In this document: one piece after another, positions 23,525-34,272 of the stretch
Position numbering within the stretch: position 1 is the stretch's first letter
Layout of the letters: each line of letters begins with the position of its first letter
Origin: Deltaproteobacteria bacterium
Lineage (GTDB): Bacteria; Desulfobacterota; Syntrophia; Syntrophales; UBA8958
Assembly (NCBI GenBank): GCA_029553375.1
Contig: JAKPCH010000069.1
Span: 2,972-66,971, forward strand
Reading direction: 5' to 3'
DNA length: 64,000 nucleotides
Made by a program: the position numbers and the translations under genes
The notes under the pieces: generated by a model
Database searches by the model: none
What the model saw: only the letters and a program-made list of their open reading frames with translations
Told to the model about the DNA's origin: nothing

Positions 23525-24288
23525 TCACGGCGGGCGTCGATATCGGCTCCATCACCGCCAAGGCGGCGGTGCTGAAGGAGGGGGAGGTCCTCGCCGTCAG
23601 CGTCGGCTTCACGGGCTACAATGCCGCCCAGGCCGGAATGAAGGTCCTGGCGGAGGCCTTGGCTGAGGCGGGCGTGGCCATGGAAGGGGTGGACGCCGTC
23701 GCGGCGACGGGCTACGGCCGCCGGAGCCTGCCCGTGGCCGGCACGATTGTCACGGAGATCACGTGCCATGCCGCGGGCGTCCATCTTCTTCACCCCCGGA
23801 TCCGCACCCTCGTGGACATCGGGGGCCAGGACAGCAAGGCCATCCTCATGGGCGACGACGGGAAGGTGAAGAACTTCGTCATGAACGACAAGTGCGCCGC
23901 CGGGACGGGACGCTTCCTTGAGGTCATGGCCCGGGCCCTCGAGGTGGATCTCGACAGCTTCGGCGAATTGTCGCAGCGCGCCGAGAGGGCGGCCCGCATC
24001 AGCAACCTCTGTACCGTCTTCGCCGAATCCGAGGTCATTTCCCTCATCGCCGCCGGCGAGGAGCGGGAGAACATCATCGCCGGGATCCACGAGGCCATAG
24101 GCAGCAGGGTCTTTGCCATGATTAACCGTCTCGGCTACAAAGAGCCGATCATGATGACGGGCGGCGTGGCCAAGAACAAAGGTGTCGTCGCGGCCCTGGA
24201 GAGGCAGTTGGGTTGCCCCATCGAGATCTCGCCCTACGCCCAGTGCATGGGCGCCATCGGGGCCGCCGTCGTCGCCAGGGAAAAGTGA
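23521..24288 (+). CDS. ATPase activator (archerase) of 2-hydroxyacyl-CoA dehydratase, BcrAD/BadFG/HgdC family
   Basis: ORF 23116..24288 trimmed to GTG 23521 (GTGA overlap). It has an ASKHA N-terminus GVDIGSITAKAAV and DIGGQDSK. The bridging-cluster cysteines lie in NDKCAAGTGRFLE and NLCTVFAESEV. Confidence 0.85.
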   Translation: MITAGVDIGSITAKAAVLKEGEVLAVSVGFTGYNAAQAGMKVLAEALAEAGVAMEGVDAVAATGYGRRSLPVAGTIVTEITCHAAGVHLLHPRIRTLVDIGGQDSKAILMGDDGKVKNFVMNDKCAAGTGRFLEVMARALEVDLDSFGELSQRAERAARISNLCTVFAESEVISLIAAGEERENIIAGIHEAIGSRVFAMINRLGYKEPIMMTGGVAKNKGVVAALERQLGCPIEISPYAQCMGAIGAAVVAREK

Positions 24289-25973
24289 CGTCCCTATACA
24301 CGGAAGAGACGACCTACAGGCGATTCCGCGCCATCGCCATCTTCCGCATCGCCATCGCCGGTCTCCTGATGGGGGTAATGGTCTCCCTACATCTCGGAGG
24401 CGGCGCCCGATACCTCGACATCGTCCTGCCCCATTTTTACGCCGTCCTTGTCCTTGGCCTCCTGTTGTCTTTCTTCTTTCTCTATCTCCTGGGACGGACC
24501 GGCGGGACGAGGGTTCACCTTTACCTCCAGGCCCTCAGCGACATCATCCTCATTACCGCCCTCGTGTACGTGACAGGAGGTATCCGCAGCAATTACGCCG
24601 TCTTCTATCCCCTGGTCATCATCTATGCCGTCATCATCCAGGGGCGGGAGGGCGGTGTCCTCGCCGCCTCGGGGGCCGCCATCGCCTACGGCCTCCTCGT
24701 CGATCTGGAATACTACCGCCTCATACCTTCGCCGGGCGTCTATTACTTCATGGACTATCCCTTCAGCGCCCCTTACGTGTTCCTACGCATCAGCGTCCAT
24801 ATCCTCTCTTTCTACCTTATCGCCTTCCTCGCGGCCTTCATCACGGAGCGGGAGACGAAGACGCGGGAGATGCTCAGGGAAAAGGAGTCGGCCTTCAACC
24901 GCCTTGATCGACTCTACCGGAGCATCGTGGAGTCCGTGGAGGCGGGCATCCTGACCATTGATCACCAGGGGAGGATAAAGAGCCTCAACAGGGGAGGGGA
25001 GAACATCACCGGTTTCACGGCCAGGGAAGTGGAAGATATGCCCCTTTCCGCCTTGTTTCCCGACCTCGGCGAGGCCCCGTCGCCCATCGGCCGCACGGGC
25101 CGCAGGGATATCGCTTTCCGAAGCAGGGACGGGGAACGTAAGATCCTCGGTCTCTCCATGTCACCCCTCTTCGACGAAAGGGGAGAGAGGATAGGAACGA
25201 TCGTCATCTTTCAGGACCTGACGAAGGTGAGAAAGATGGAGGAGACCATAGAGAGGAACCGCCGCCTGGCCTTGCTGGGAGAGATGGCCGCCACCCTGGC
25301 CCACGAGCTGAGAAACCCCCTGGCCTCCATCAGCAGCTCCATCCAGCTGTTGAAGAAGGACCTGACCTTGAGCGAGATGGACGCCCGTCTCATGGGCATC
25401 ATCCTCAGGGGGAAGGACCAGATCGAGGGTTTTATAAAAGATTTCCTGCAGCTTAGCCGAATTTCACCCATGCTGAAGGAGAAGGTATTCCCCCGGGAGG
25501 TCCTGGAGGAGGTCATAGAGGCCGTCCGGGCCACGGAGGACTGGCGGGAATCCATCACCTTCGGCCTCGACGTGGAAGACGAAGGGCCATTCTGGCTATC
25601 CCGCTCCGATGTGAGACAGATCCTCTGGAACCTGATCCTGAACGCCGTGCAGGCGATGCCGAGGGGAGGGAGGGTCGGCGTTACCATAGGCCGCGTAAAA
25701 CGGGAAGAGGCGGATGTCCTCTTGATCCGCGTCGCCGATGAGGGCGAAGGGTCGGGAGGCAGGGATCTGGACATGTTCCTGGAACCCTTCTATACTACCA
25801 AAGATGGTGGGACCGGCTTGGGATTGGCGATCGTCAACCGCATCGTGAGCGCCTACGACGGTCGCATGGACCTGGCCGATCTAAGTCCCCGGGGGCTCGC
25901 CGTGACCGTGGAGCTGCCCCTGTCTGCATCCCAGGACGGAAGGACCGATGGCGAAGATACTGGTGGTCGATGA
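24285..25973 (+). CDS. PilS-like polytopic sensor histidine kinase (multi-TM N-terminus, PAS, HisKA, HATPase)
   Basis: ORF 24213..25973 trimmed to GTG 24285 (GTGA overlap with the activator stop). Five to six hydrophobic helices are followed by a PAS domain ([22 protein letters not shown]). The H-box is [12 protein letters not shown], the N-box is LILNAVQAM, and the G-boxes are VADEGEG and GGTGLGLAI. Confidence 0.8.
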
Positions 25974-27309
25974 CGATCAGGGCATGAGGGAGGTCCTCGA
26001 GATCATGCTCGAGCGGGACGGTTACGAGGTCGGCAGCGTCTCCAACCCCGAACGGGCCCTCAGACGCCTGCGGCGGGAGAGGTACGACCTCATCATCACG
26101 GACCTGCGCATGCCGGGAATGGACGGCATCCAGTTTCTGAGGCAGGTCAAGGAACTCGACCCGGACCAGACGGTGATCCTGCTGACGGCCTTCGCCTCTC
26201 CGGATACGGCCCTCGCCGCCATGAAGGAGGGGGCCTACGACTACATAGAAAAGAACTTCGACGTAGAAGAGCTCAAAAACACCATCCGTCAGGCCCTGGA
26301 GAAAAAGGGGATCAAGAGGGAGGAGACCTTCGCCTGGGACGGCGGCGAGGTAGTTCATTTCGGGGGGATGATCAGCAAAAGCAGGAAGATGATCTCCGTC
26401 TTCCAGACGATCATGAAGGTCGCCGAGACGACCACCAACGTCCTGATCCTCGGGGAAAGCGGGACGGGCAAGGAGCTGGTGGCCCGGGCGATCCACGAAA
26501 AGAGCAAGAGAAGCAAGATGCCTTTCGTCGTCATCAACTGCGGCGGCGTCCCCGAGAATCTCCTCGAATCGGAATTTTTCGGTTATACGAAGGGGGCCTT
26601 CACCGGTGCCTTCAACGACCGGGCCGGTCTCTTTGAAATCGCCGATGGTGGTACGATATTCCTGGATGAAATCGGAGAATTATCCCCTTTTCTTCAAGTA
26701 AAGCTTTTAAGGGTTGTCCAGGACAAGACCTTCCGTCGCATCGGGGGGTCGGAGGACATAAAGGTGGATGTGCGGATCATCTCCGCCACCAACCAGGACC
26801 TCCGGAGGAGGGTGCAGGAGGGGACGTTTCGCGAAGATCTATACTTCCGCCTCAACGTCATCCCCATCCATCTGCCCCCCCTGCGGGAGCGTCGGGAAGA
26901 CATCCCCGTTCTGACTTCTTATTTCATCGAGAGGTACTGCCGCGCCTTCGGGAAGGAACCAAAGACCCTCTCGGCTTACACCATGGATCTTTTGATGAGG
27001 TACGACTTCCCGGGAAACGTCAGGGAATTGGAAAACATCGTCGAGAGGGGGGTGGCCTTGGAGGAGACCAACATCATCCTCCCGGAAAACCTCAGCGTGG
27101 CACCCCCGTCAGGGACGATCCTCGACGGCGTCCCCGAGGGAGGCCTCGACCTCAACGCGGAGCTGGCACGCTACGAGCGGGTACTGATCGAGGACGCCCT
27201 GGGAAAAACGGGGGGATCCCGGGCAAAGGCGGCGAAAATGCTCGGCATTTCGGCGGACTCCCTCTACTATCGCATGGAGAAACTCGGTATCACGCAAAAA
27301 ATGTCTTGA
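25948..27309 (+). CDS. Sigma54-dependent response regulator (NtrC/PilR family)
   Basis: Receiver domain ([21 protein letters not shown]), AAA+ Walker A GESGTGKE, the sigma54-contact motif KGAFTGA and a C-terminal Fis-type HTH ([17 protein letters not shown]). It overlaps the kinase 3' end by 26 nt. Confidence 0.9.
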
Positions 27310-27332
27310 CTTGCCTTACCGTTTCGTATAGG
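27306..27332 (+). promoter_or_regulatory. Weak sigma70-like promoter candidate for the transporter leader
   Basis: TTGACT (27306-27311), a 15-nt spacer and TATAGG (27327-27332). The spacer is suboptimal and the element overlaps the regulator's stop codon. Confidence 0.3.
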
Positions 27333-27375
27333 GAGACCTACCGTAAGGCAGATCTCTCGAGTTGAGAGGGGAAGG

Positions 27376-27444
27376 ATGATTATCCGTTCGCAAAGGTTTT
27401 ACTTCTTTAGCTTTAGGGGCGGGGTCTGCCTTATGGGCTCGTGA
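27376..27444 (+). CDS. Candidate Phe/Tyr-rich leader peptide (22 codons)
   Basis: ATG 27376 is preceded by GAGAGGGG at 4-nt spacing. Translation gives MIIRSQRFYFFSFRGGVCLMGS plus a stop. Codons 8-13 are TTT TAC TTC TTT AGC TTT. It is too short to appear in the ORF track and I read it manually. Confidence 0.4.
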   Translation: MIIRSQRFYFFSFRGGVCLMGS

Positions 27445-27463
27445 ACCTAACAAGGGGTAACGG

Positions 27464-27501
27464 GCCGTGGGCGGACCCAAAGTCCTCCCACGGCTTTTTT
27501 T
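27464..27501 (+). terminator. Intrinsic terminator 1 in the transporter leader
   Basis: An 8-bp stem pairs GCCGTGGG (27464-27471) with CCCACGGC (27487-27494). An inner GGAC/GTCC pairing is possible. A run of 7 T follows (27495-27501). Confidence 0.6.
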
Positions 27502-27508
27502 ATGTCCA

Positions 27509-27538
27509 GGCCGTGGAGAAGATCCCGGCCTTTTTTTT
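27509..27538 (+). terminator. Intrinsic terminator 2 in the transporter leader
   Basis: GGCCG(T)GG (27509-27516) pairs with CCCGGCC (27524-27530), giving 7 bp with one bulge. A run of 8 T follows (27531-27538), and then AGGAGG begins immediately. Confidence 0.5.
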
Positions 27539-27552
27539 AGGAGGGAGAAAAA

Positions 27553-28764
27553 ATGATGAGAAAAATTGGGATCATCGTAGTGGTTTTGGCCGTATGCCTC
27601 TGGGCAATGGCACCCGATGCCGGGGCCGCGGCAAAGCCCATCAAGGTGGGGGCCGCCATCAACACGACCGGACCCGCCTCGACCTGGGGTCAGTACCACG
27701 CGAAGGGACAGCAGGATTATTTCCGCTACGTCAACGAGGTGAAGGGGGGCGTCGGGGGACGCAAGATCGAGATGATCCTCGTGGACACGGCCTACAAGGT
27801 GCCCGAGGCGGTGGCGGCGGTGAGGAAATTCGCCGTCCAGGATAAGGTGGACATGATCGCCACCTGGGGTGCCGGTGAGGGTCTGGCCGCCAAGCCGATT
27901 ATCCAGCAATACCGAATTCCGACGATAAACTACTCCACGAGCTGGGAGATCCTGGAGAAGCCCATCAATTACATGTATCTCCCCTTCGGCAGTTATAAGA
28001 TGGACTGTATGGCCATTCTCGACTACATCAAGGCCGTTCACCGCGGCAGGGAAAAGCCGAAGGTAGGCCTCCTGACCTTCAACAACGCCTATGGTCGTTC
28101 AATTCACAAACCGAGCATGGAATACGCCCGCAAAATAGGGGTGGACATCGTCGCCGTCGAGGAATTCCCCCCTAAATCCGTCGACTTGACGACGGAGCTC
28201 CTGCGGCTGCAAAAGAGCGGGGCGGAATACGTCTTCATGCAGATGCTGCCTTCGGCCATCATCACCACCTTCAAGAGCGCCGACCGGATCAACTATCACC
28301 CCGTGTTCCTGGGCACCTGGACATCTACGGACCCCGATTTCTTCAAGCTGGGGCGCGGCCTCATCAAAGACCGCCTGGTGATGCAATTCCCCGGCGGCCT
28401 GCCGTCGGACAACACACCGGGGGTCAAGATCCTGACGGAACTGTGGCGACGCTACAAGACCGTCGATCGTTTCGACGCCTCCTACTGGGAGGGTGTGGTG
28501 ATCGCCATGATCATGGAGCGGGCCTTCGTCAGGGCTCATGAAAAGTACGGCACCGTCGACAGGGAGACCATCAACAAGGCCCTGGAGGGATTCCGCAACG
28601 AAAGTTTCGGCGGTCTCTTCCCGGACGTGACCTACACCCCCACGAACCACTCGGCGTCCTTCAAGGCCCGGATCGTTCAGGTTCATGAGAACGGGTCCTA
28701 TACCCCCCTCACCGCCTTCTTCACGCCGGGGAAGGAGAAGATCCGTTTCGTGAAGGCCCGATGA
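27553..28764 (+). CDS. ABC transporter periplasmic substrate-binding protein, LivK/LivJ (type I PBP) family
   Basis: 403 aa with signal peptide MMRKIGIIVVVLAVCLWAMAPDAGA. IKVGAAINTTGPAS and VDTAYKVPEAVAAVRKF are typical of Leu/Ile/Val/aromatic-acid binding proteins. Confidence 0.9.
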   Translation: MMRKIGIIVVVLAVCLWAMAPDAGAAAKPIKVGAAINTTGPASTWGQYHAKGQQDYFRYVNEVKGGVGGRKIEMILVDTAYKVPEAVAAVRKFAVQDKVDMIATWGAGEGLAAKPIIQQYRIPTINYSTSWEILEKPINYMYLPFGSYKMDCMAILDYIKAVHRGREKPKVGLLTFNNAYGRSIHKPSMEYARKIGVDIVAVEEFPPKSVDLTTELLRLQKSGAEYVFMQMLPSAIITTFKSADRINYHPVFLGTWTSTDPDFFKLGRGLIKDRLVMQFPGGLPSDNTPGVKILTELWRRYKTVDRFDASYWEGVVIAMIMERAFVRAHEKYGTVDRETINKALEGFRNESFGGLFPDVTYTPTNHSASFKARIVQVHENGSYTPLTAFFTPGKEKIRFVKAR

Positions 28765-29573
28765 AGTCGTTCCGCGGCGAACCGTCCATCTTCCGCGACC
28801 GGGACCACCGGGAAAGGCAGGCTGAACTTACCGTCACTGATGTCTCCCTGTCTTTCGGGGGCGTCAAGGCCCTCCAGGACGTGAGTCTCCAGGTAAATAC
28901 GGGGGAGATCCTCGCCGTCATTGGACCCAACGGTGCCGGCAAGACGAGCCTCATGAACTGTATCACCGGTTTCTACCGCCCCCAGAGAGGCAGTATCGTC
29001 TTCAACGGCCGCGACATCACCCGCCTGAAGCCCCATGAGCTCGTCAAGGTCGGCATCGGCCGGACCTTTCAAAACATCGAGTTGTTCCCCGGCATGACCG
29101 TCTTGTCGAACATGCTCCTGGCGCGCCATGTTCACTGCCGCTACCCCTTTCTCGGGGCGGTTTTGTTCCTGCCCCGCGTCCGCAGGGAGGAGGTTCGCCA
29201 CCGCCGGGTCCTGGAGGAGATCATCGACTTCTTGGAACTGCAGGCGATCAGGAAGAAGACCGTGGCCTCCTTGCCCTACGGACTGATGAAGCGGGTGGAG
29301 CTCGGCCGGGCCATGGCCCTGGAACCGCGCCTGTTGGTCCTGGACGAGCCCTTCGCCGGCATGACCCTGGAGGAGAAGGAGGACATGGTTCGTTTCATCA
29401 GGGAGCTGAACGAGGCCTGGGGGCAGACCATGATCCTGGTGGAACACGACATGTCCATCGTCATGAGCATCTCCACCCGGGTGGTGGTCCTGAATTTCGG
29501 CCAGAAATTGGCCGAGGGGGTCCCCGAGGACATCATCAACGACCCGGAGGTCATCCGTGCCTACCTGGGATAA
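28761..29573 (+). CDS. ABC transporter ATP-binding protein, LivG type
   Basis: Walker A GPNGAGKTS, signature LPYGLMKRVELGRA and Walker B LLVLDEPFAGM. There is an ATGA overlap with the SBP stop. Confidence 0.9.
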   Translation: MKSFRGEPSIFRDRDHRERQAELTVTDVSLSFGGVKALQDVSLQVNTGEILAVIGPNGAGKTSLMNCITGFYRPQRGSIVFNGRDITRLKPHELVKVGIGRTFQNIELFPGMTVLSNMLLARHVHCRYPFLGAVLFLPRVRREEVRHRRVLEEIIDFLELQAIRKKTVASLPYGLMKRVELGRAMALEPRLLVLDEPFAGMTLEEKEDMVRFIRELNEAWGQTMILVEHDMSIVMSISTRVVVLNFGQKLAEGVPEDIINDPEVIRAYLG

Positions 29574-31491
29574 CCCGTTGTCGACGATACCGCAGGTTCT
29601 CGTCAAACAGGCCGAGGTGCTGGGAGACGGGGTCTGCGCCATCCGGGAGAAGGCCTACGGCATCTGGCAGACCTATTCATGGGCCGACTATCTCCGCTAC
29701 GTGCGTAAAACGTCCCTGGGTCTGTTCGAGATCGGATTGAGGAGGGGCGAGATCCTCGCCATGATCACGGACAACAACCCCGAGTGGCTCTTTTCCGAGA
29801 TCGGCGCCCAGGCCTTGGGGTGTCCCACCATCAATCTCTTCACCTCTTCCATCCCCGAGGAGTTACGATTCGCCCTCAACAGGATCGGGGCCGCCGTCGT
29901 CATCGCCCAGGACCAGGAACAGGTGGACAAGCTCCTCGAGATCCGGGAGAAGATCCCCCACGTCCGTGCCGTCGTGGCCCTGGACCCCACGGGGATGAGG
30001 GGATACTGGGACGATCCCTGGATCATGCCCTTCCGGCGCCTCCTCGACCTGGGCGAGGCGAAGGAGAGGGAAAACCCCGACCTCTTCATGGAGATGGTGA
30101 AAAGGGGAAAGGGGGGCGACACGGCCGTCATGATCCAGACCTCGGGCACGACGGGGGTGTCCAAACAGGCCATGTTGACCCACGGCGGGATCCTCGCCAT
30201 GGGACGGAAGTGGAAAGAGCTCCTGGCCATCAAGCCGGGTGAAAACTGGCTCTCCATGTCCCCCCCGGCGTGGATCGTGGACCAGATGTGGGGGATGGGC
30301 GTGGCCGTCGTGACGGGCATGACCATGAACTTCCCGGAGACACCCGAGACGATTCTGGAGGATTTCCGCGAGATCGGACCCTCCATCGTCATCACCTCCT
30401 CTCGGTTCTGGGAGGACATGGCCTCCCGTATCCGCGTCCGCATCGCCGACGCGGGTTTCGTCAAAAAGACCTTGTTCCGGTGGGGAGAGAGCGTGGGGCG
30501 GAAGGTGATGGGGAAGCGCTTCGCCGGACAAGAGGTGTCCCTTGCCCTGGAGTTGCTCCACAAGGCGGCGGACAGGATCGTTTACCGGCCCCTCTTGGAT
30601 CGCGTGGGGTGCTCGGGTCTCCGGGCGGCCCTCACGGGCGGGCATCCCATCAGTCCCGACGTGATTCTCTTCTTCCGCGCCGTCGGTCTCAACCTCAAGC
30701 AGTGTTACGGCCTGACGGAGGGGGGAGGCATCTTCCAGGTCCAACCGGATGACGAGGTGAAGCTGGAGACCGTCGGCAGGTCCCTGCCGGGGGTGCAGGT
30801 TCGCCTGTCGGAAGAGCAGGAGGTCCTGGTGAAGAGCGAGACCCTCTTTGTCGGCTACTGGCGAGACTACACCGCCACGGAGGCCGCCTTCACCGCCGAC
30901 GGCTGGCTCAAGACGGGAGACGCCGGCTATATCGACGACGACGGTCACCTCATCATCATCGGCCGGAAAGAGGACATCATCAGGGACAAGAAGGGGAACG
31001 CCTTTTCGCCCGATTTCATCGAGACGCGTCTGAAGTTCAGCCCCTTCATCAAGGAGGCCGTGGTCTTCGGAGAGGGAAGACCGTACATCACCGCCCTGAT
31101 CAACATCGACATGGAAAACGTCGGCAGCTGGGCGGAGGAACGCCTGATACCTTACACCACCTACACGGACCTCTCCCAGCAGAGCGCGGTGGAGGAGTTG
31201 ATCCTGTCGGAGGTGCGGACGGTCAACAAACAGCTGCCGCCGGTGATGCGGGTGAGGAAGTTCATCCTCCTGTACAAGCTCCTCGACGCCGACGACGAGG
31301 AATTGACCAGAACGGGAAAGGTAAGGCGCCGCTTTGTCTACGGCGTGTACATCAAGCTCATCGAGGCCATGTACCGCAATCTCAAGGAATTGGACGTGAC
31401 GGGGAAGATCCGGTACCGCGACGGCAGGGTGGGTGAGATCAGCACCCGCGTCAAGGTCATCGAGGTCCCCCAGGACGACGCGACCGCCTAA
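29557..31491 (+). CDS. AMP-forming acyl-CoA synthetase embedded in the ABC transporter operon
   Basis: 644 aa with motifs IQTSGTTGVSKQAMLTHG, CYGLTEGG and TGDAGYIDDDGHL. The GTG start at 29557 overlaps the livG-type 3' end by 17 nt. Confidence 0.85.
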   Translation: MPTWDNPLSTIPQVLVKQAEVLGDGVCAIREKAYGIWQTYSWADYLRYVRKTSLGLFEIGLRRGEILAMITDNNPEWLFSEIGAQALGCPTINLFTSSIPEELRFALNRIGAAVVIAQDQEQVDKLLEIREKIPHVRAVVALDPTGMRGYWDDPWIMPFRRLLDLGEAKERENPDLFMEMVKRGKGGDTAVMIQTSGTTGVSKQAMLTHGGILAMGRKWKELLAIKPGENWLSMSPPAWIVDQMWGMGVAVVTGMTMNFPETPETILEDFREIGPSIVITSSRFWEDMASRIRVRIADAGFVKKTLFRWGESVGRKVMGKRFAGQEVSLALELLHKAADRIVYRPLLDRVGCSGLRAALTGGHPISPDVILFFRAVGLNLKQCYGLTEGGGIFQVQPDDEVKLETVGRSLPGVQVRLSEEQEVLVKSETLFVGYWRDYTATEAAFTADGWLKTGDAGYIDDDGHLIIIGRKEDIIRDKKGNAFSPDFIETRLKFSPFIKEAVVFGEGRPYITALINIDMENVGSWAEERLIPYTTYTDLSQQSAVEELILSEVRTVNKQLPPVMRVRKFILLYKLLDADDEELTRTGKVRRRFVYGVYIKLIEAMYRNLKELDVTGKIRYRDGRVGEISTRVKVIEVPQDDATA

Positions 31492-31521
31492 AGCGATTCA
31501 GTATTTTAACGAGGAAAGAGA

Positions 31522-32400
31522 ATGGACTTCTTCCTGCAACTGCTCGTGAACGGCCTCAGTATCGGTTTCCTCTACGGCCTTTCGGCCATGGGGTTCGTCA
31601 TGATCTTCAAATCCTCGAGCGTGTTGAACTTCGCCCACGGGGAGCTCATCGCCTTCGGCGCCTATCTCTTTTTGGTCCTCTGCTCATGGGCCCAGCTGTC
31701 ATTGCCCCTGTCCTTCCTTCTCACCCTGGCGGGTTGTTTCCTCCTGGGCTTCGCCGTGGAGAGGGTCTTCCTGCGCCCCCTCATCGGTGAGCCCCTCATC
31801 TTCGTCATCATGCTCACCGTGGGCCTCGCGGCCATGTTCAAGGGATCGATCCTCTTGGTCTTCGGCGGCAATCTCCATACCTATCCCGATTTCCTCCCTC
31901 CCTGGCTCGGTTTGACGTGGGGGAGCGTCTCCCTCCAGCCCGTGTACACCGTCACCCTCATCATCGGCACGGCCTTTTTGATCCTCTTCGGACTCTTTTT
32001 CAAGTTCTCCTCCCAGGGCATCTACATGAGGTCCGTGGCGGACAACCAGCGGGCCGCCCTTTCCCTGGGCGTGCACGTCAAGAGGGTCTTCGCCCTCTCG
32101 TGGGCCATAGCGGCCCTCGTGGCGGGCATGAGCGGCATCGTCCTCGGGATCATCAACGGCGTGAACGTCCATGATCTCAGCGGCATCGGTCTGAAGGTGT
32201 TTCCCGTCGTCATCCTCGGTGGTCTCGACAGTATCGGCGGTGCCATAATCGGGGGCATCATCATCGGTGTCCTCGAGGCGCTGACGGGGGGTTACATCTC
32301 CCCGTCTCTCAAGGACGTCATCCCATACATCGTCCTTGTCTTCATCCTCATGGTGAAGCCCTACGGCCTCTTCGGTCAGGTGGAGATTGAGAGGGTGTAA
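31522..32400 (+). CDS. Branched-chain/hydrophobic-substrate ABC permease, LivH type
   Basis: 292 aa, polytopic. It starts MDFFLQLLVNGLSIGFLYGLSAMGFVMIF and contains NFAHGE, both typical of LivH. Confidence 0.9.
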   Translation: MDFFLQLLVNGLSIGFLYGLSAMGFVMIFKSSSVLNFAHGELIAFGAYLFLVLCSWAQLSLPLSFLLTLAGCFLLGFAVERVFLRPLIGEPLIFVIMLTVGLAAMFKGSILLVFGGNLHTYPDFLPPWLGLTWGSVSLQPVYTVTLIIGTAFLILFGLFFKFSSQGIYMRSVADNQRAALSLGVHVKRVFALSWAIAALVAGMSGIVLGIINGVNVHDLSGIGLKVFPVVILGGLDSIGGAIIGGIIIGVLEALTGGYISPSLKDVIPYIVLVFILMVKPYGLFGQVEIERV

Positions 32401-33471
32401 ATGAAGAAACTGAGATTCCACCCCTGCGGCAACTTTCGGGAAAGGTACGAGCAGGAACTGACGGTCTTCGAGACCGACTTCGGCCGTCTCTGGACGACTT
32501 TGGGAATTGTGGCCCTCTTCGCCCTCGTGCCCTTCGTCGCCTCGCCCTACACCCTTTACGTGATAAACACCATCGGCATCGTGGCCATCGCCGCCGTCGG
32601 GCTCAACATCCTCATCGGCTACACCGGCCAGATCTCCCTCGGCCACGGCGCCTTCTTCGGCGTCGGGGCCTACGGGGCCGCCGTCCTGGCCACGCGCTGG
32701 GATTGGCCCCTCGCGGCCGCCGTTCCCGCGGCGGGCCTGATCACCGCCCTGGTGGGCATGGTCTTCGGCCTGCCGTCCAGCCGCCTCAAGGGCCTCTACC
32801 TGACCATCGCCACCCTGGCGGGGCAATTCATCATCGAATACGTCCTCGTCCACTGGGACACGGTGACCATGGGGACCATGGGCATCACCCTCCCGCCCCC
32901 TTCCCTGTGGGGATGGGAGATCAGGGGGGACGTGGGTTTCTTCTATCTGATCTTTCCCGTCTTCATCCTCATGCTCTGGATGGCCGTGAACCTGATGCGC
33001 ACGAAATACGGCCGGGCCTTCGTCGCCATCAGGGACAACGACCGGGCCGCGGAGGGGATGGGTATCGCCATCTTCCCTTACAAGCTCCTCTCCTTCGCCA
33101 TCAGCTCCTTCTACGCCGGGGTGGCCGGCGCCCTCTTCGCCTATTACACCGTCAGCATCACCACGGAACCCTTCAATCTCGCCCTGTCCGTGGAATATAT
33201 CGCCATGGTCATCATCGGGGGCATGGGCAACATGGCGGGGGCCGTGTTCGGGGCCGTCTTCATAACGGTCTTGAACGAGATCCTGAGGTGGGGCACCGAC
33301 ATGATGATGAATATGGGGATCTTCGGATCCATGGGCTTGAACATGGCACCCCTGAGAGAGTTCGTTTTCGGTCTCGCCATCGTTATTTTCATCATCTTCG
33401 AGCCCCGGGGCCTGGCGGAGGTGTGGCGTATCTGGCGCTCGAGTTTCCGCCTGTGGCCCTTCTCCTATTAG
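32401..33471 (+). CDS. ABC permease, LivM type
   Basis: 356 aa with LNILIGYTGQISLGHGAFFGVGAY, typical of LivM. It starts immediately after the livH-type stop. Confidence 0.9.
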   Translation: MKKLRFHPCGNFRERYEQELTVFETDFGRLWTTLGIVALFALVPFVASPYTLYVINTIGIVAIAAVGLNILIGYTGQISLGHGAFFGVGAYGAAVLATRWDWPLAAAVPAAGLITALVGMVFGLPSSRLKGLYLTIATLAGQFIIEYVLVHWDTVTMGTMGITLPPPSLWGWEIRGDVGFFYLIFPVFILMLWMAVNLMRTKYGRAFVAIRDNDRAAEGMGIAIFPYKLLSFAISSFYAGVAGALFAYYTVSITTEPFNLALSVEYIAMVIIGGMGNMAGAVFGAVFITVLNEILRWGTDMMMNMGIFGSMGLNMAPLREFVFGLAIVIFIIFEPRGLAEVWRIWRSSFRLWPFSY

Positions 33472-34272
33472 GTGCGCGATATGTTATTGACGATCAACAA
33501 TATTTCCGTCGTCTACTCCGACGTGATCCAGGTCCTCAAGGGGGTGTCCCTGAGGGTGGAAGAGGGGCAAATCGTCTCCCTCCTGGGGGGGAACGGCGCC
33601 GGCAAGACGACGACCCTCAAGGCCGTCTCGGGTCTGTTGAAACCGGAAAACGGGCGGGTCACGGACGGCGAGATCATCTTCGCCGGCTCCCCCATCCACA
33701 ATCTCAGCCCGGAAGAGATCACCAGGAAGGGCATCATCCAGGTCCTGGAGGGCCGCCAGCCCTTCAAGTACCTGACGGTCGAGGAGAATCTCCGGGTGGG
33801 GACGGCCATCCGTTTCGGGAAACCCTACCAGGAAGATCTTAAGCTGGTTTATTCCTACTTCCCCGCCCTCCTCAACCGCCGGAAGATGAAGGCCGGTTAC
33901 TGCAGCGGCGGGGAACTGCAGATGCTCGTCATGGGCCGCGCCCTCATGGCCCACCCGCGTTTGCTCCTCCTCGACGAACCTTCGTTGGGCCTGGCCCCCC
34001 TGGTGGTCCGCGAGATCTTCGGGATCATCAAGAGGATCAACGAGGAGCAGGGGACGACGATCGTCCTGGTGGAGCAGAACGCCAACATGGCCCTTCAGAT
34101 CGCCCATTACGGCTACGTCATGGAGAACGGCAAGATCGTCATGGAGGGACCGGCGGAAGAGCTGAGAGAGAATCCCGATATCAAGGAATTCTATCTCGGC
34201 GTTTCCGCCGCAGGGGCCCTGAAGAGTTACCGGGACGTGAAGTCCTACCGGCGGAGAAAACGCTGGCTGTAA
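33472..34272 (+). CDS. ABC transporter ATP-binding protein, LivF type
   Basis: Walker A GGNGAGKTT, signature CSGGELQML and Walker B LLLLDEPSLGL. The start is either GTG 33472 or ATG 33481. Confidence 0.9.
   Translation: MRDMLLTINNISVVYSDVIQVLKGVSLRVEEGQIVSLLGGNGAGKTTTLKAVSGLLKPENGRVTDGEIIFAGSPIHNLSPEEITRKGIIQVLEGRQPFKYLTVEENLRVGTAIRFGKPYQEDLKLVYSYFPALLNRRKMKAGYCSGGELQMLVMGRALMAHPRLLLLDEPSLGLAPLVVREIFGIIKRINEEQGTTIVLVEQNANMALQIAHYGYVMENGKIVMEGPAEELRENPDIKEFYLGVSAAGALKSYRDVKSYRRRKRWL

Follow-up and report, generated by a model that had tools for sequence, protein, structure and literature searches.

What occupies the 243 nucleotides (nt) that separate the stop codon of an NtrC-type sigma-54 response regulator gene (25948-27309) from the ATG (27553) of a Liv-type binding-protein gene, and does it govern the operon that begins there? 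The question arises in a 64-kb stretch of DNA from a Deltaproteobacteria bacterium (GCA_029553375.1, contig JAKPCH010000069.1), which as a whole is here called the window and has a GC content of 62.7%. An initial annotation had placed four elements in this gap, namely a weak promoter, a small open reading frame (ORF) rich in phenylalanine (Phe) codons and two hairpins each followed by a T-tract, and had read them as ribosome-mediated attenuation. All four were found at the positions assigned to them, and the order across 27306-27552 is promoter, leader ORF, antiterminator segment, two intrinsic terminators and the ribosome-binding site (RBS) of the binding-protein gene. The element is very probably a leader-peptide attenuator, in which a translating ribosome would sense charged tRNA-Phe and thereby control a Liv-type ATP-binding cassette (ABC) uptake operon. 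The case for this conclusion is comparative, and rests on the coding signature of the leader, the covariation of competing RNA helices and the exchange of codon runs before different genes.

Eighty loci encoding relatives of the window binding protein were retrieved from a collection holding one genome per species. All are metagenome-assembled Syntrophales (Syntrophus, Smithella and relatives), with 70-79% protein identity, which agrees with the earlier description of the genome as deltaproteobacterium-like. Across nearly all 80 loci, the 200 nt located 5' of the binding-protein gene show a striking resemblance. A covariance model built from these relatives, spanning the antiterminator segment (segment 2) through terminator 1, scored the window copy at 78.8 bits (E = 6e-16). 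Exactly one copy of the element, on the coding strand and directly 5' of the binding-protein gene, was found at 78 of the 78 loci with upstream DNA; covariance-model searches detected no extra copies in the flanks of these loci and no second copy in the 64-kb window. Relative to shuffled sequences, the window leader folds with z = -3.8.

The leader ORF of the window has 22 codons (27376-27444) and is preceded by the Shine-Dalgarno sequence GAGAGGGG, 4 nt 5' of its ATG, as had been described. Four Phe codons and one tyrosine (Tyr) codon fall within six successive codons, 8 to 13, and the claim that this run forms an AT-rich island was borne out by its GC content of 22%. Conservation of the mini-ORF at orthologous loci, a check proposed in the initial annotation, was observed: leader ORFs of ~17-31 codons containing 4-9 Phe codons are present at essentially all of them. 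An RBS-like motif precedes the leader ATG in most relatives, and the in-frame stop codon, which varies among TGA, TAA and TAG, stands at or just after segment 2. The leader peptide of a typical relative ends in FFxFFSFFxxVC(L/P)xxS, the Smithella-type peptide reads ..AVFFYFFSF.., and a third type ends in ..SSSFFFFFG, with its stop codon directly before segment 2.

The substitution pattern of the Phe codons was counted in 62 alignable leaders. The first and second positions hold T in 82-100% of the leaders at four of the five aligned Phe codons, and one first position holds it in 68%. Changes at the third position are almost confined to exchanges between T and C. Such nearly synonymous-only variation bears the mark of selection on the encoded amino acid. 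The leaders use TTT over TTC by 234:40, as against 22:141 in eight neighboring genes of the window; this preference fits the idea that a slowly decoded (wobble) codon sharpens the sensor.

The RNA of the element can be described as a series of segments whose pairings compete (Table 1). The hairpin at 27464-27494, followed by T7, was confirmed as terminator 1 and has 13-nt arms with one mismatch, a 5-nt loop and a predicted energy of -25.9 kcal/mol. The hairpin at 27509-27530, whose T8 ends at the AGGAGG of the next RBS, was confirmed as terminator 2 at -15.3 kcal/mol; its arms are segments 5 and 6. A simple generic terminator scan returned 0 sites, and both hairpins presumably escaped it because each stem has an internal mismatch close to its loop. 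The core of segment 2, GGGTCTGCC (27422-27430), is complementary to GGCGGACCC (27470-27478) in segment 3 with one G.U pair, as had been pointed out when an antiterminator was suggested, and GGTCTGCC within segment 2 is nearly invariant across the family. The structures first listed are real, and the list needs to be extended in two respects. It overlooked segment 1 (27341-27354), which is complementary to segment 2 and forms with it a duplex of -17.8 kcal/mol (z = -4.0), and terminator 2 may have an anti-structure of its own, a hairpin of -15.1 kcal/mol between segments 4 and 5. In most relatives, a GGCAG-type segment 1 complementary to segment 2 lies just 5' of the Phe codons.

Both terminators and the 2:3 and 4:5 helices were scored for pairing in a MAFFT alignment of 73 sequences. 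Terminator 1 is paired in 96.5% of the alignment cells, with compensatory (both-sided) changes in 5 of its 11 pairs, and terminator 2 in 85%, with such changes in 6 of 8 pairs. The antiterminator 2:3 helix, the pairing proposed at the outset, is paired in 94% of cells and shows both-sided changes in 2 of 11 pairs; one of its positions alternates among GC (60 sequences), AU (6) and GU (7). For the 4:5 helix, in which the 3' arm of terminator 1 joins the 5' arm of terminator 2, pairing reaches 90.5% of cells. Controls in shifted register gave 31-51% pairing for the terminators and 34-41% for 2:3 and 4:5 combined. At two loci (L027 and L061), the 5' arm of terminator 2 tracks a change in terminator 1, though this breaks a terminator 2 pair. 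The second terminator was detected in 54 of 76 loci. Within the antiterminator loop, the minimum-energy fold of 27415-27481 contains an inner hairpin that may stabilize the antiterminator. The last base of its 5' arm is the first base of the leader stop codon, and its arms match in relatives when judged by eye (GCTCAT/ATGAGC, GCTCGT/ACGAGC and GCCCGA/TCGGGC).

Folding, which had been suggested as a check for mutually exclusive structures, yielded terminator and antiterminator forms that exclude one another. The minimum-energy fold of the full window leader from ~27340 contains 1:2 together with both terminators (-89.3 kcal/mol); when segment 1 is left out (27415-27538), it consists of 2:3 and 4:5, and neither terminator is present. 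A transcript cut off after segment 3 takes antiterminator 2:3 as its minimum-energy fold at 76 of 76 loci, and terminator 1 lies within the minimum-energy fold of the full leader at 67 of 76. The stop codon is situated 0-12 nt past the segment 2 core in all leader classes, consistent with masking of segment 2 by the ribosome, and because the first Phe codon lies 25 nt 5' of segment 2, this segment should remain free during a stall.

A metagenome collection was scanned with a DNA pattern of segments 2, 3 and 4 only, which took no account of the codon run or of the gene that follows, and 108 loci were recovered. Orthologues of the window binding protein (69-95% identity, save three truncated or fragmentary ORFs) follow Phe-rich leaders, and the same scaffold precedes other genes with other aromatic codons, including tryptophan (Trp) codons (Table 2). 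The identities of the ADH synthase, DAHP synthase and AroD proteins lie above curated NCBIfam cut-offs. Across the leader classes, the invariant GGTCTGCC is read in three frames (..VC.., ..RSA.. and ..GLP..). Because all three frames are used, segment 2 is conserved as RNA, and because its frame varies, the codon run is the only feature that matters at the level of the peptide. The identity of the codon run tracks the downstream gene family, and in this way most likely sets the specificity of the element. Because the codon run follows the target gene on a shared scaffold, ribosome-mediated sensing of aromatic aminoacyl-tRNA is hard to replace as an explanation.

Table 2. Genes found downstream of the shared scaffold in the metagenome scan, with mean aromatic codon counts over the last 22 codons of each leader
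Downstream gene	Loci	Phe	Tyr	Trp	Reading of segment 2
Orthologues of the window binding protein	70	6.5	0.5	0	..VC.. (69/70)
Distant Liv-type binding protein (24-29% identity)	12	0.6	4.8	0	..RSA..
ADH synthase	6	2.8	5.7	0.5	..GLP..
DAHP synthase	2	4.0	2.5	1.5	..VC..
Type I dehydroquinate dehydratase (AroD)	1	2	4	2	..VC..
LivH-type permease	1	0	1	3	..VC..
514-amino-acid acyl-CoA ligase	4	4.8	0.5	0	..VC.. (3), ..GLP.. (1)

Several members of this wider set deserve individual description. The second Liv-type binding-protein family always has a Tyr-run leader (for example YYGYGY), with the scaffold read in a different frame (L084, L090, L104, L107, L108, L112, L118, L137, L154, L162, L163 and L181); the codon run predicts that this is a tyrosine-related transporter. 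L141 (3164-3670), on a short contig, is the only example of its type: its leader contains Trp-Trp-Trp and is followed by a gene for a LivH-type permease, which suggests a tryptophan-related transporter. The ADH synthase in these contigs is the archaeal-type first enzyme of aromatic biosynthesis, and is found under the same scaffold with mixed Tyr, Phe and Trp codons at L152 (1113-5844) and at L145, L157, L170 and L179. In L152, the ADH synthase gene is followed by ORFs of 330, 271 and 421 amino acids. By size and N-terminal sequence, the latter two look like shikimate dehydrogenase and EPSP synthase, and the 330-amino-acid ORF may encode a type II dehydroquinate synthase, judging only from its position beside ADH synthase. 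In L089, DAHP synthase is followed by an ORF that resembles a chorismate mutase/prephenate dehydratase, again by size and N-terminal sequence.

The attenuation reading first put forward is supported, then, by a translatable ORF, a cluster of cognate Phe codons under selection, an intrinsic terminator with a mutually exclusive antiterminator, both of which covary, and the exchange of aromatic codons between target genes, and these include the parts by which leader attenuators are recognized. A broader proposition is offered tentatively and at somewhat less than even confidence: that there exists in Syntrophales a modular 'aromatic attenuator', in which one RNA scaffold serves at least seven gene families, specificity is set by swapping the codon run alone (Phe, Tyr, Trp or mixed, in any of three frames), and many copies contain a six-segment relay (1:2/3:4/5:6 versus 2:3/4:5) through which one stalled ribosome would disarm two terminators.

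Transcription of the leader appears to depend on a promoter of its own. A (C)TTGAC(A/T) element following an A/T-rich stretch is present at 72 of the 72 related loci having enough upstream sequence; it lies 92-132 nt 5' of segment 2 at all but four of these, where the distance is 39-214 nt. In the window this -35 element, TTGACT, includes the stop codon (27307-27309) with which the upstream regulator gene ends. Relatives typically have a TAnAnn hexamer (such as TAGAGA, TAGAAG or TATAAG) 17-18 nt past the -35 element. The TATAGG at 27327-27332 that completed the weak promoter of the initial annotation has a 15-nt spacer, and because of the family pattern the window -10 is better read as TAGGGA (27329-27334), which has the family-typical 17-nt spacer; the TTGACT half of that promoter stands, and its -10 is best set 2 nt downstream. 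Transcription would then start at about 27340-27343. A generic promoter scan made no call on this promoter, an omission attributed to the unusual -10 of the window, and taking the best-scoring sigma-70 match per locus gave nothing useful; it was anchoring on TTGAC that exposed the conserved promoter. T8 directly abuts the AGGAGGG of the binding-protein gene, and because just 14 nt remain between the T-tract and the ATG, no promoter fits after the second terminator, as had been argued from the start.

A sigma-54 promoter under the control of the adjacent NtrC-type regulator was considered and rejected: a search for the -24/-12 element (TGGCAC-N5-TTGCW) with up to two mismatches found none anywhere in 27306-27552, and a conserved sigma-70-type -35/-10 is present instead. 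An inverted repeat surrounds the -10 region, with arms TGCCTTACCGT (27312-27322) and ACCGTAAGGCA (27340-27350) that are 11 nt long, 91% complementary and 17 nt apart; segment 1 is the downstream one of the two. The -10 of Smithella-type loci is likewise flanked by an inverted repeat (GCATAT-N7-ATATGC). The window repeat could be a repressor operator, or its upstream arm could serve as a 'segment 0' that sequesters segment 1 in transcripts reading through from the regulator gene. The word TGCCTTAC, considered as a regulator binding site, matches the window at 32 places, and 2 of 100 shuffles reached that number; this candidate was set aside, as segment 2, segment 1 and the upstream arm of the inverted repeat account better for its three local copies.

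According to the mechanism that these features suggest, transcription would start at ~27340 from the conserved sigma-70-type promoter (-35 at 27306-27311), and a ribosome would translate the 22-codon leader. When charged tRNA-Phe is ample, the ribosome would reach the stop codon, where its presumed footprint would occupy segment 2 (27422-27437). Segments 3 and 4 would then pair, terminator 1 would form, and RNA polymerase would halt at T7; any polymerase reading past terminator 1 would be caught by terminator 2 (5:6) at T8. If the leader were not translated, segment 1 would pair with segment 2 and both terminators would form, a role that segment 1 may also play in the window copy. When charged tRNA-Phe is scarce, the ribosome would stall at 27397-27414 and leave segment 2 free. 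Segment 2 would pair with segment 3 as soon as the latter is made, forming the antiterminator and leaving segment 4 unpaired, and segment 4 could in turn pair with segment 5, a relay that would disarm terminator 2. With neither terminator formed, polymerase would enter the operon, and the window leader would in this manner respond to Phe.

Other explanations of the same features must be weighed. Both hairpins follow the regulator gene and share its strand, and the leader ORF is in frame with the regulator stop codon; these observations would fit if the hairpins were simply terminators of the sigma-54 regulator gene, the mini-ORF had arisen by chance, and the transporter were expressed from an unrecognized promoter or by leaky read-through. 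Yet the regulator is found upstream in just ~24 of the 80 related loci, as against 78 of 78 for the element, and because of this difference the element is assigned to the transporter operon and not to the regulator. A conserved promoter between the regulator stop and the leader, the coding signature of the ORF and the lack of promoter space past the second T-tract also count against this explanation, the probability of which is next to negligible. The U-rich tract might instead act as RNA, for example as a uridine triphosphate-sensitive pause of the kind known from E. coli pyrBI, as an Hfq site or as an unstructured spacer. Its third codon positions are 85% T in a genome that favors TTC by 141:22, and it has 22% GC within a 63% GC window, all of which would suit a function in the nucleic acid. 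Against such a function, substitutions to C occur at codon position 3 only, never at 1 or 2, sister elements exchange the U tract for TAY or TGG runs and keep the scaffold, and the target genes are related to aromatic amino acids, not pyrimidines, making it extremely improbable.

Direct sensing of a ligand by a riboswitch or by a protein-binding leader (TRAP, PyrR or T-box type), with an incidental ORF, would also employ a terminator and an antiterminator, a design common to such systems, and would account for the far greater conservation of the RNA scaffold (segments 2 to 4) than of the peptide. However, a cmscan of 26800-28000 with E up to 10 found no match to the Rfam leader families (Phe_leader and the Trp, His, Leu and Thr leaders), and the matches that it did give, to microRNAs and small RNAs, were at chance level and fell short of the gathering score in every case. 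Moreover, only the codon run changes with the target gene, and does so in terms of amino acids (Phe, Tyr, Trp or mixed); the start codon, RBS and in-frame stop are conserved; the Phe codons are substituted almost only synonymously; and the conserved RNA outside the ORF consists of two alternative helices, without an evident ligand pocket. Direct ligand sensing is therefore regarded as very improbable. It is likewise very improbable that the terminated leader acts chiefly as a small RNA in trans, or through a functional leader peptide, with control in cis being secondary. Liberated attenuator RNAs can act in trans, as is reported for Sinorhizobium rnTrpL (PMC6614838), and the leader gave weak, sub-threshold Rfam matches to two-hairpin small RNAs such as SorX. 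These matches are at chance level (E = 0.36; 17 bits, where the gathering score is 46.6). The element always stands directly 5' of an aromatic-related gene and is co-oriented with it, and the peptide beyond the codon run is not conserved, segment 2 being read in three frames. A trans role in addition to control in cis is possible.

The reading of the element as a Phe-sensing attenuator also has evidence against it, some of which concerns the window copy in particular. The window leader is the weakest of the family and the poorest in Phe, with four Phe and one Tyr codon as against the typical 6-8 Phe. Its segment 1 lies upstream of the leader RBS, a position that the standard model does not explain, and hence would not be masked by the stalled ribosome; were 1:2 to form again in this copy, termination would be expected. 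The bias toward TTT over TTC, opposite to genome usage, also fits selection for a U-rich RNA. Covariation of the 4:5 helix is slight (both-sided changes in 2 of 7 pairs); if terminator 2 partly duplicates terminator 1, the helix could follow from that alone. Finally, among solved structures, the nearest to the binding protein is that of a generic binding protein for branched-chain amino acids.

The operon downstream of the leader (Table 1) contains, in addition to the components of a Liv-type ABC transporter, an acyl-CoA ligase gene that sits between the first ATPase and the permease genes and overlaps the ATPase gene by 17 nt. If the leader responds to Phe, the operon would be implied to help supply Phe. 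The substrate could be Phe itself, or it could be an aryl acid that is activated with coenzyme A (CoA) by the operon ligase and then converted to Phe. The E. coli LIV-I system transports Phe as well, and some anaerobes reductively carboxylate CoA-activated aryl acids to phenylpyruvate. Phe-type leaders before a stand-alone acyl-CoA ligase gene are compatible with the aryl-acid idea. A search of solved structures for the ligand specificity of the binding protein and the ligase found only generic relatives. The kinase/regulator pair directly upstream of the leader is syntenic in ~24 of the 80 related loci; in the window, no sigma-54 promoter stands before the transporter operon. Two of the related loci, L045 and L051, are on the same contig (CAWEPT010000009.1) and represent paralogous binding-protein operons ~9 kb apart, each with its own Phe-type attenuator.

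Table 1. Features of the attenuator, the operon that it precedes and the adjoining regulatory genes (window positions)
Feature	Position	Strand	Basis or remark
Histidine kinase (PilS-like six-helix membrane domain and PAS) and NtrC-type sigma-54 regulator pair	24213-27309		directly upstream of leader
-35 hexamer TTGACT, sigma-70-type promoter of leader	27306-27311	+	conserved in relatives
-10 region TATAGGGA	27327-27334	+	family spacing pattern
Segment 1 (CCGTAAGGCAGATC), complementary to segment 2; 3' arm of inverted repeat with 27312-27322	27341-27354	+	
Leader-ORF RBS (GAGAGGGGAAGG)	27364-27375	+	read from sequence
Leader ORF, 22 codons, peptide MIIRSQRFYFFSFRGGVCLMGS, stop TGA 27442-27444	27376-27444	+	read from sequence
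Regulatory codons 8-13, Phe-Tyr-Phe-Phe-Ser-Phe (TTT TAC TTC TTT AGC TTT)	27397-27414	+	
Segment 2, core GGGTCTGCC 27422-27430; pairs with segment 1 or 3	27422-27437	+	
Inner hairpin GGCUCGU / ACGGGCC within antiterminator loop	27436-27466	+	minimum-energy fold of 27415-27481
Terminator 1: stem 27464-27476 / 27482-27494, T7 27495-27501	27464-27501	+	
Segment 3 (GGGCGGACCC): antiterminator partner of segment 2 and inner 5' half of terminator 1	27469-27478	+	
Segment 4 (CCCACGGC): 3' arm of terminator 1, complementary to 5' arm of terminator 2	27487-27494	+	
Terminator 2: stem 27509-27516 / 27523-27530 (segments 5, 6), T8 27531-27538	27509-27538	+	
RBS of binding-protein gene, AGGAGGG 27539-27545, and ATG 27553	27539-27555	+	read from sequence
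Regulated operon	27553-34272	+	Pfam and NCBIfam matches
Liv-type substrate-binding protein	27553-28764	+	
LivG-like ATPase	28761-29573	+	
AMP-binding acyl-CoA ligase, 644 amino acids, FadD11-like	29557-31491	+	below curated cut-off
Two permeases	31522-32400, 32401-33471	+	
LivF-like ATPase	33472-34272	+	

In its general logic the element resembles well-known systems. The leaders of E. coli pheA (pheL) and pheST (pheM) are leader-peptide attenuators with Phe codons, and share with the Syntrophales element a short Phe-run ORF followed by mutually exclusive antiterminator and terminator structures, with charged tRNA-Phe as the presumed signal. The Syntrophales element differs from them in its host, in matching neither Phe_leader nor any other Rfam family in sequence or structure, in preceding an ABC uptake operon with an acyl-CoA ligase instead of a biosynthetic enzyme or tRNA synthetase gene, and in having two tandem terminators and TTT as the preferred Phe codon. 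With E. coli trpL it shares the logic of 1:2, 2:3 (antiterminator) and 3:4 (terminator and U tract) pairing, and, in most family members, a segment 1 beside the regulatory codons and a stop codon at or after segment 2. Unlike trpL, it has two further segments, which provide the second terminator (5:6) and the possible 4:5 anti-structure, and in the window copy segment 1 is upstream of the leader RBS and not under the stalled ribosome. As in the T-boxes of Firmicutes and Actinobacteria, a modular scaffold serves one regulon that includes both transporters and biosynthetic genes, with a specificity element that is swapped, the specifier codon in T-boxes and the codon run here. T-boxes bind uncharged tRNA directly and without translation, whereas the sensor proposed here is a translating ribosome, and the Rfam scan gave no T-box match.

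Attenuators of the same class have been recognized, from the same type of evidence, by comparative genomics in Proteobacteria, Actinobacteria and Firmicutes (PMC1262725; PMC2965389). The first of these studies concerns attenuators of Actinobacteria (PMC1262725), and a text search of the second found mention of neither Syntrophus nor Deltaproteobacteria (PMC2965389). Full-text searches of a literature library yielded no account of elements like these from Syntrophus or Deltaproteobacteria, in agreement with the earlier remark that control of an uptake system by this means was not known to have been described there, although one study (Lopatovskaya et al. 2010, Mol Biol 44:128) might overlap; nor did they yield an aromatic set with Phe, Tyr, Trp and mixed variants on one scaffold. 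The mechanism would be a textbook one, and the family, its transporter targets and the possible two-terminator relay appear to be undescribed. The element represents in effect a new family of the known leader-peptide attenuator type, and its unusual features are the uptake and ligase targets, the tandem terminators with their possible relay and the modular exchange of codons on one scaffold.

These findings would extend leader-peptide attenuation to the Syntrophales, slow-growing syntrophic anaerobes in which tight coupling of transcription and translation is not a given, and would widen its targets beyond biosynthetic genes to include uptake systems. If real, the two-terminator relay would offer a simple way to cut basal read-through with inducibility kept, and the combination of a shared scaffold with a swappable codon run would constitute a natural modular design that could be reused as a sensor. 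Should the modular family hold true, the codon runs would assign physiological roles to uncharacterized Liv-type transporters and acyl-CoA ligases, acting as built-in labels that predict which of the paralogous transporters and ligases serve the supply of Phe, Tyr or Trp, a kind of substrate labeling that is beyond the reach of sequence similarity. The Phe-run operons, including that of the window, would then serve Phe supply, possibly through uptake of aryl acids and their activation with CoA for reductive Phe synthesis.

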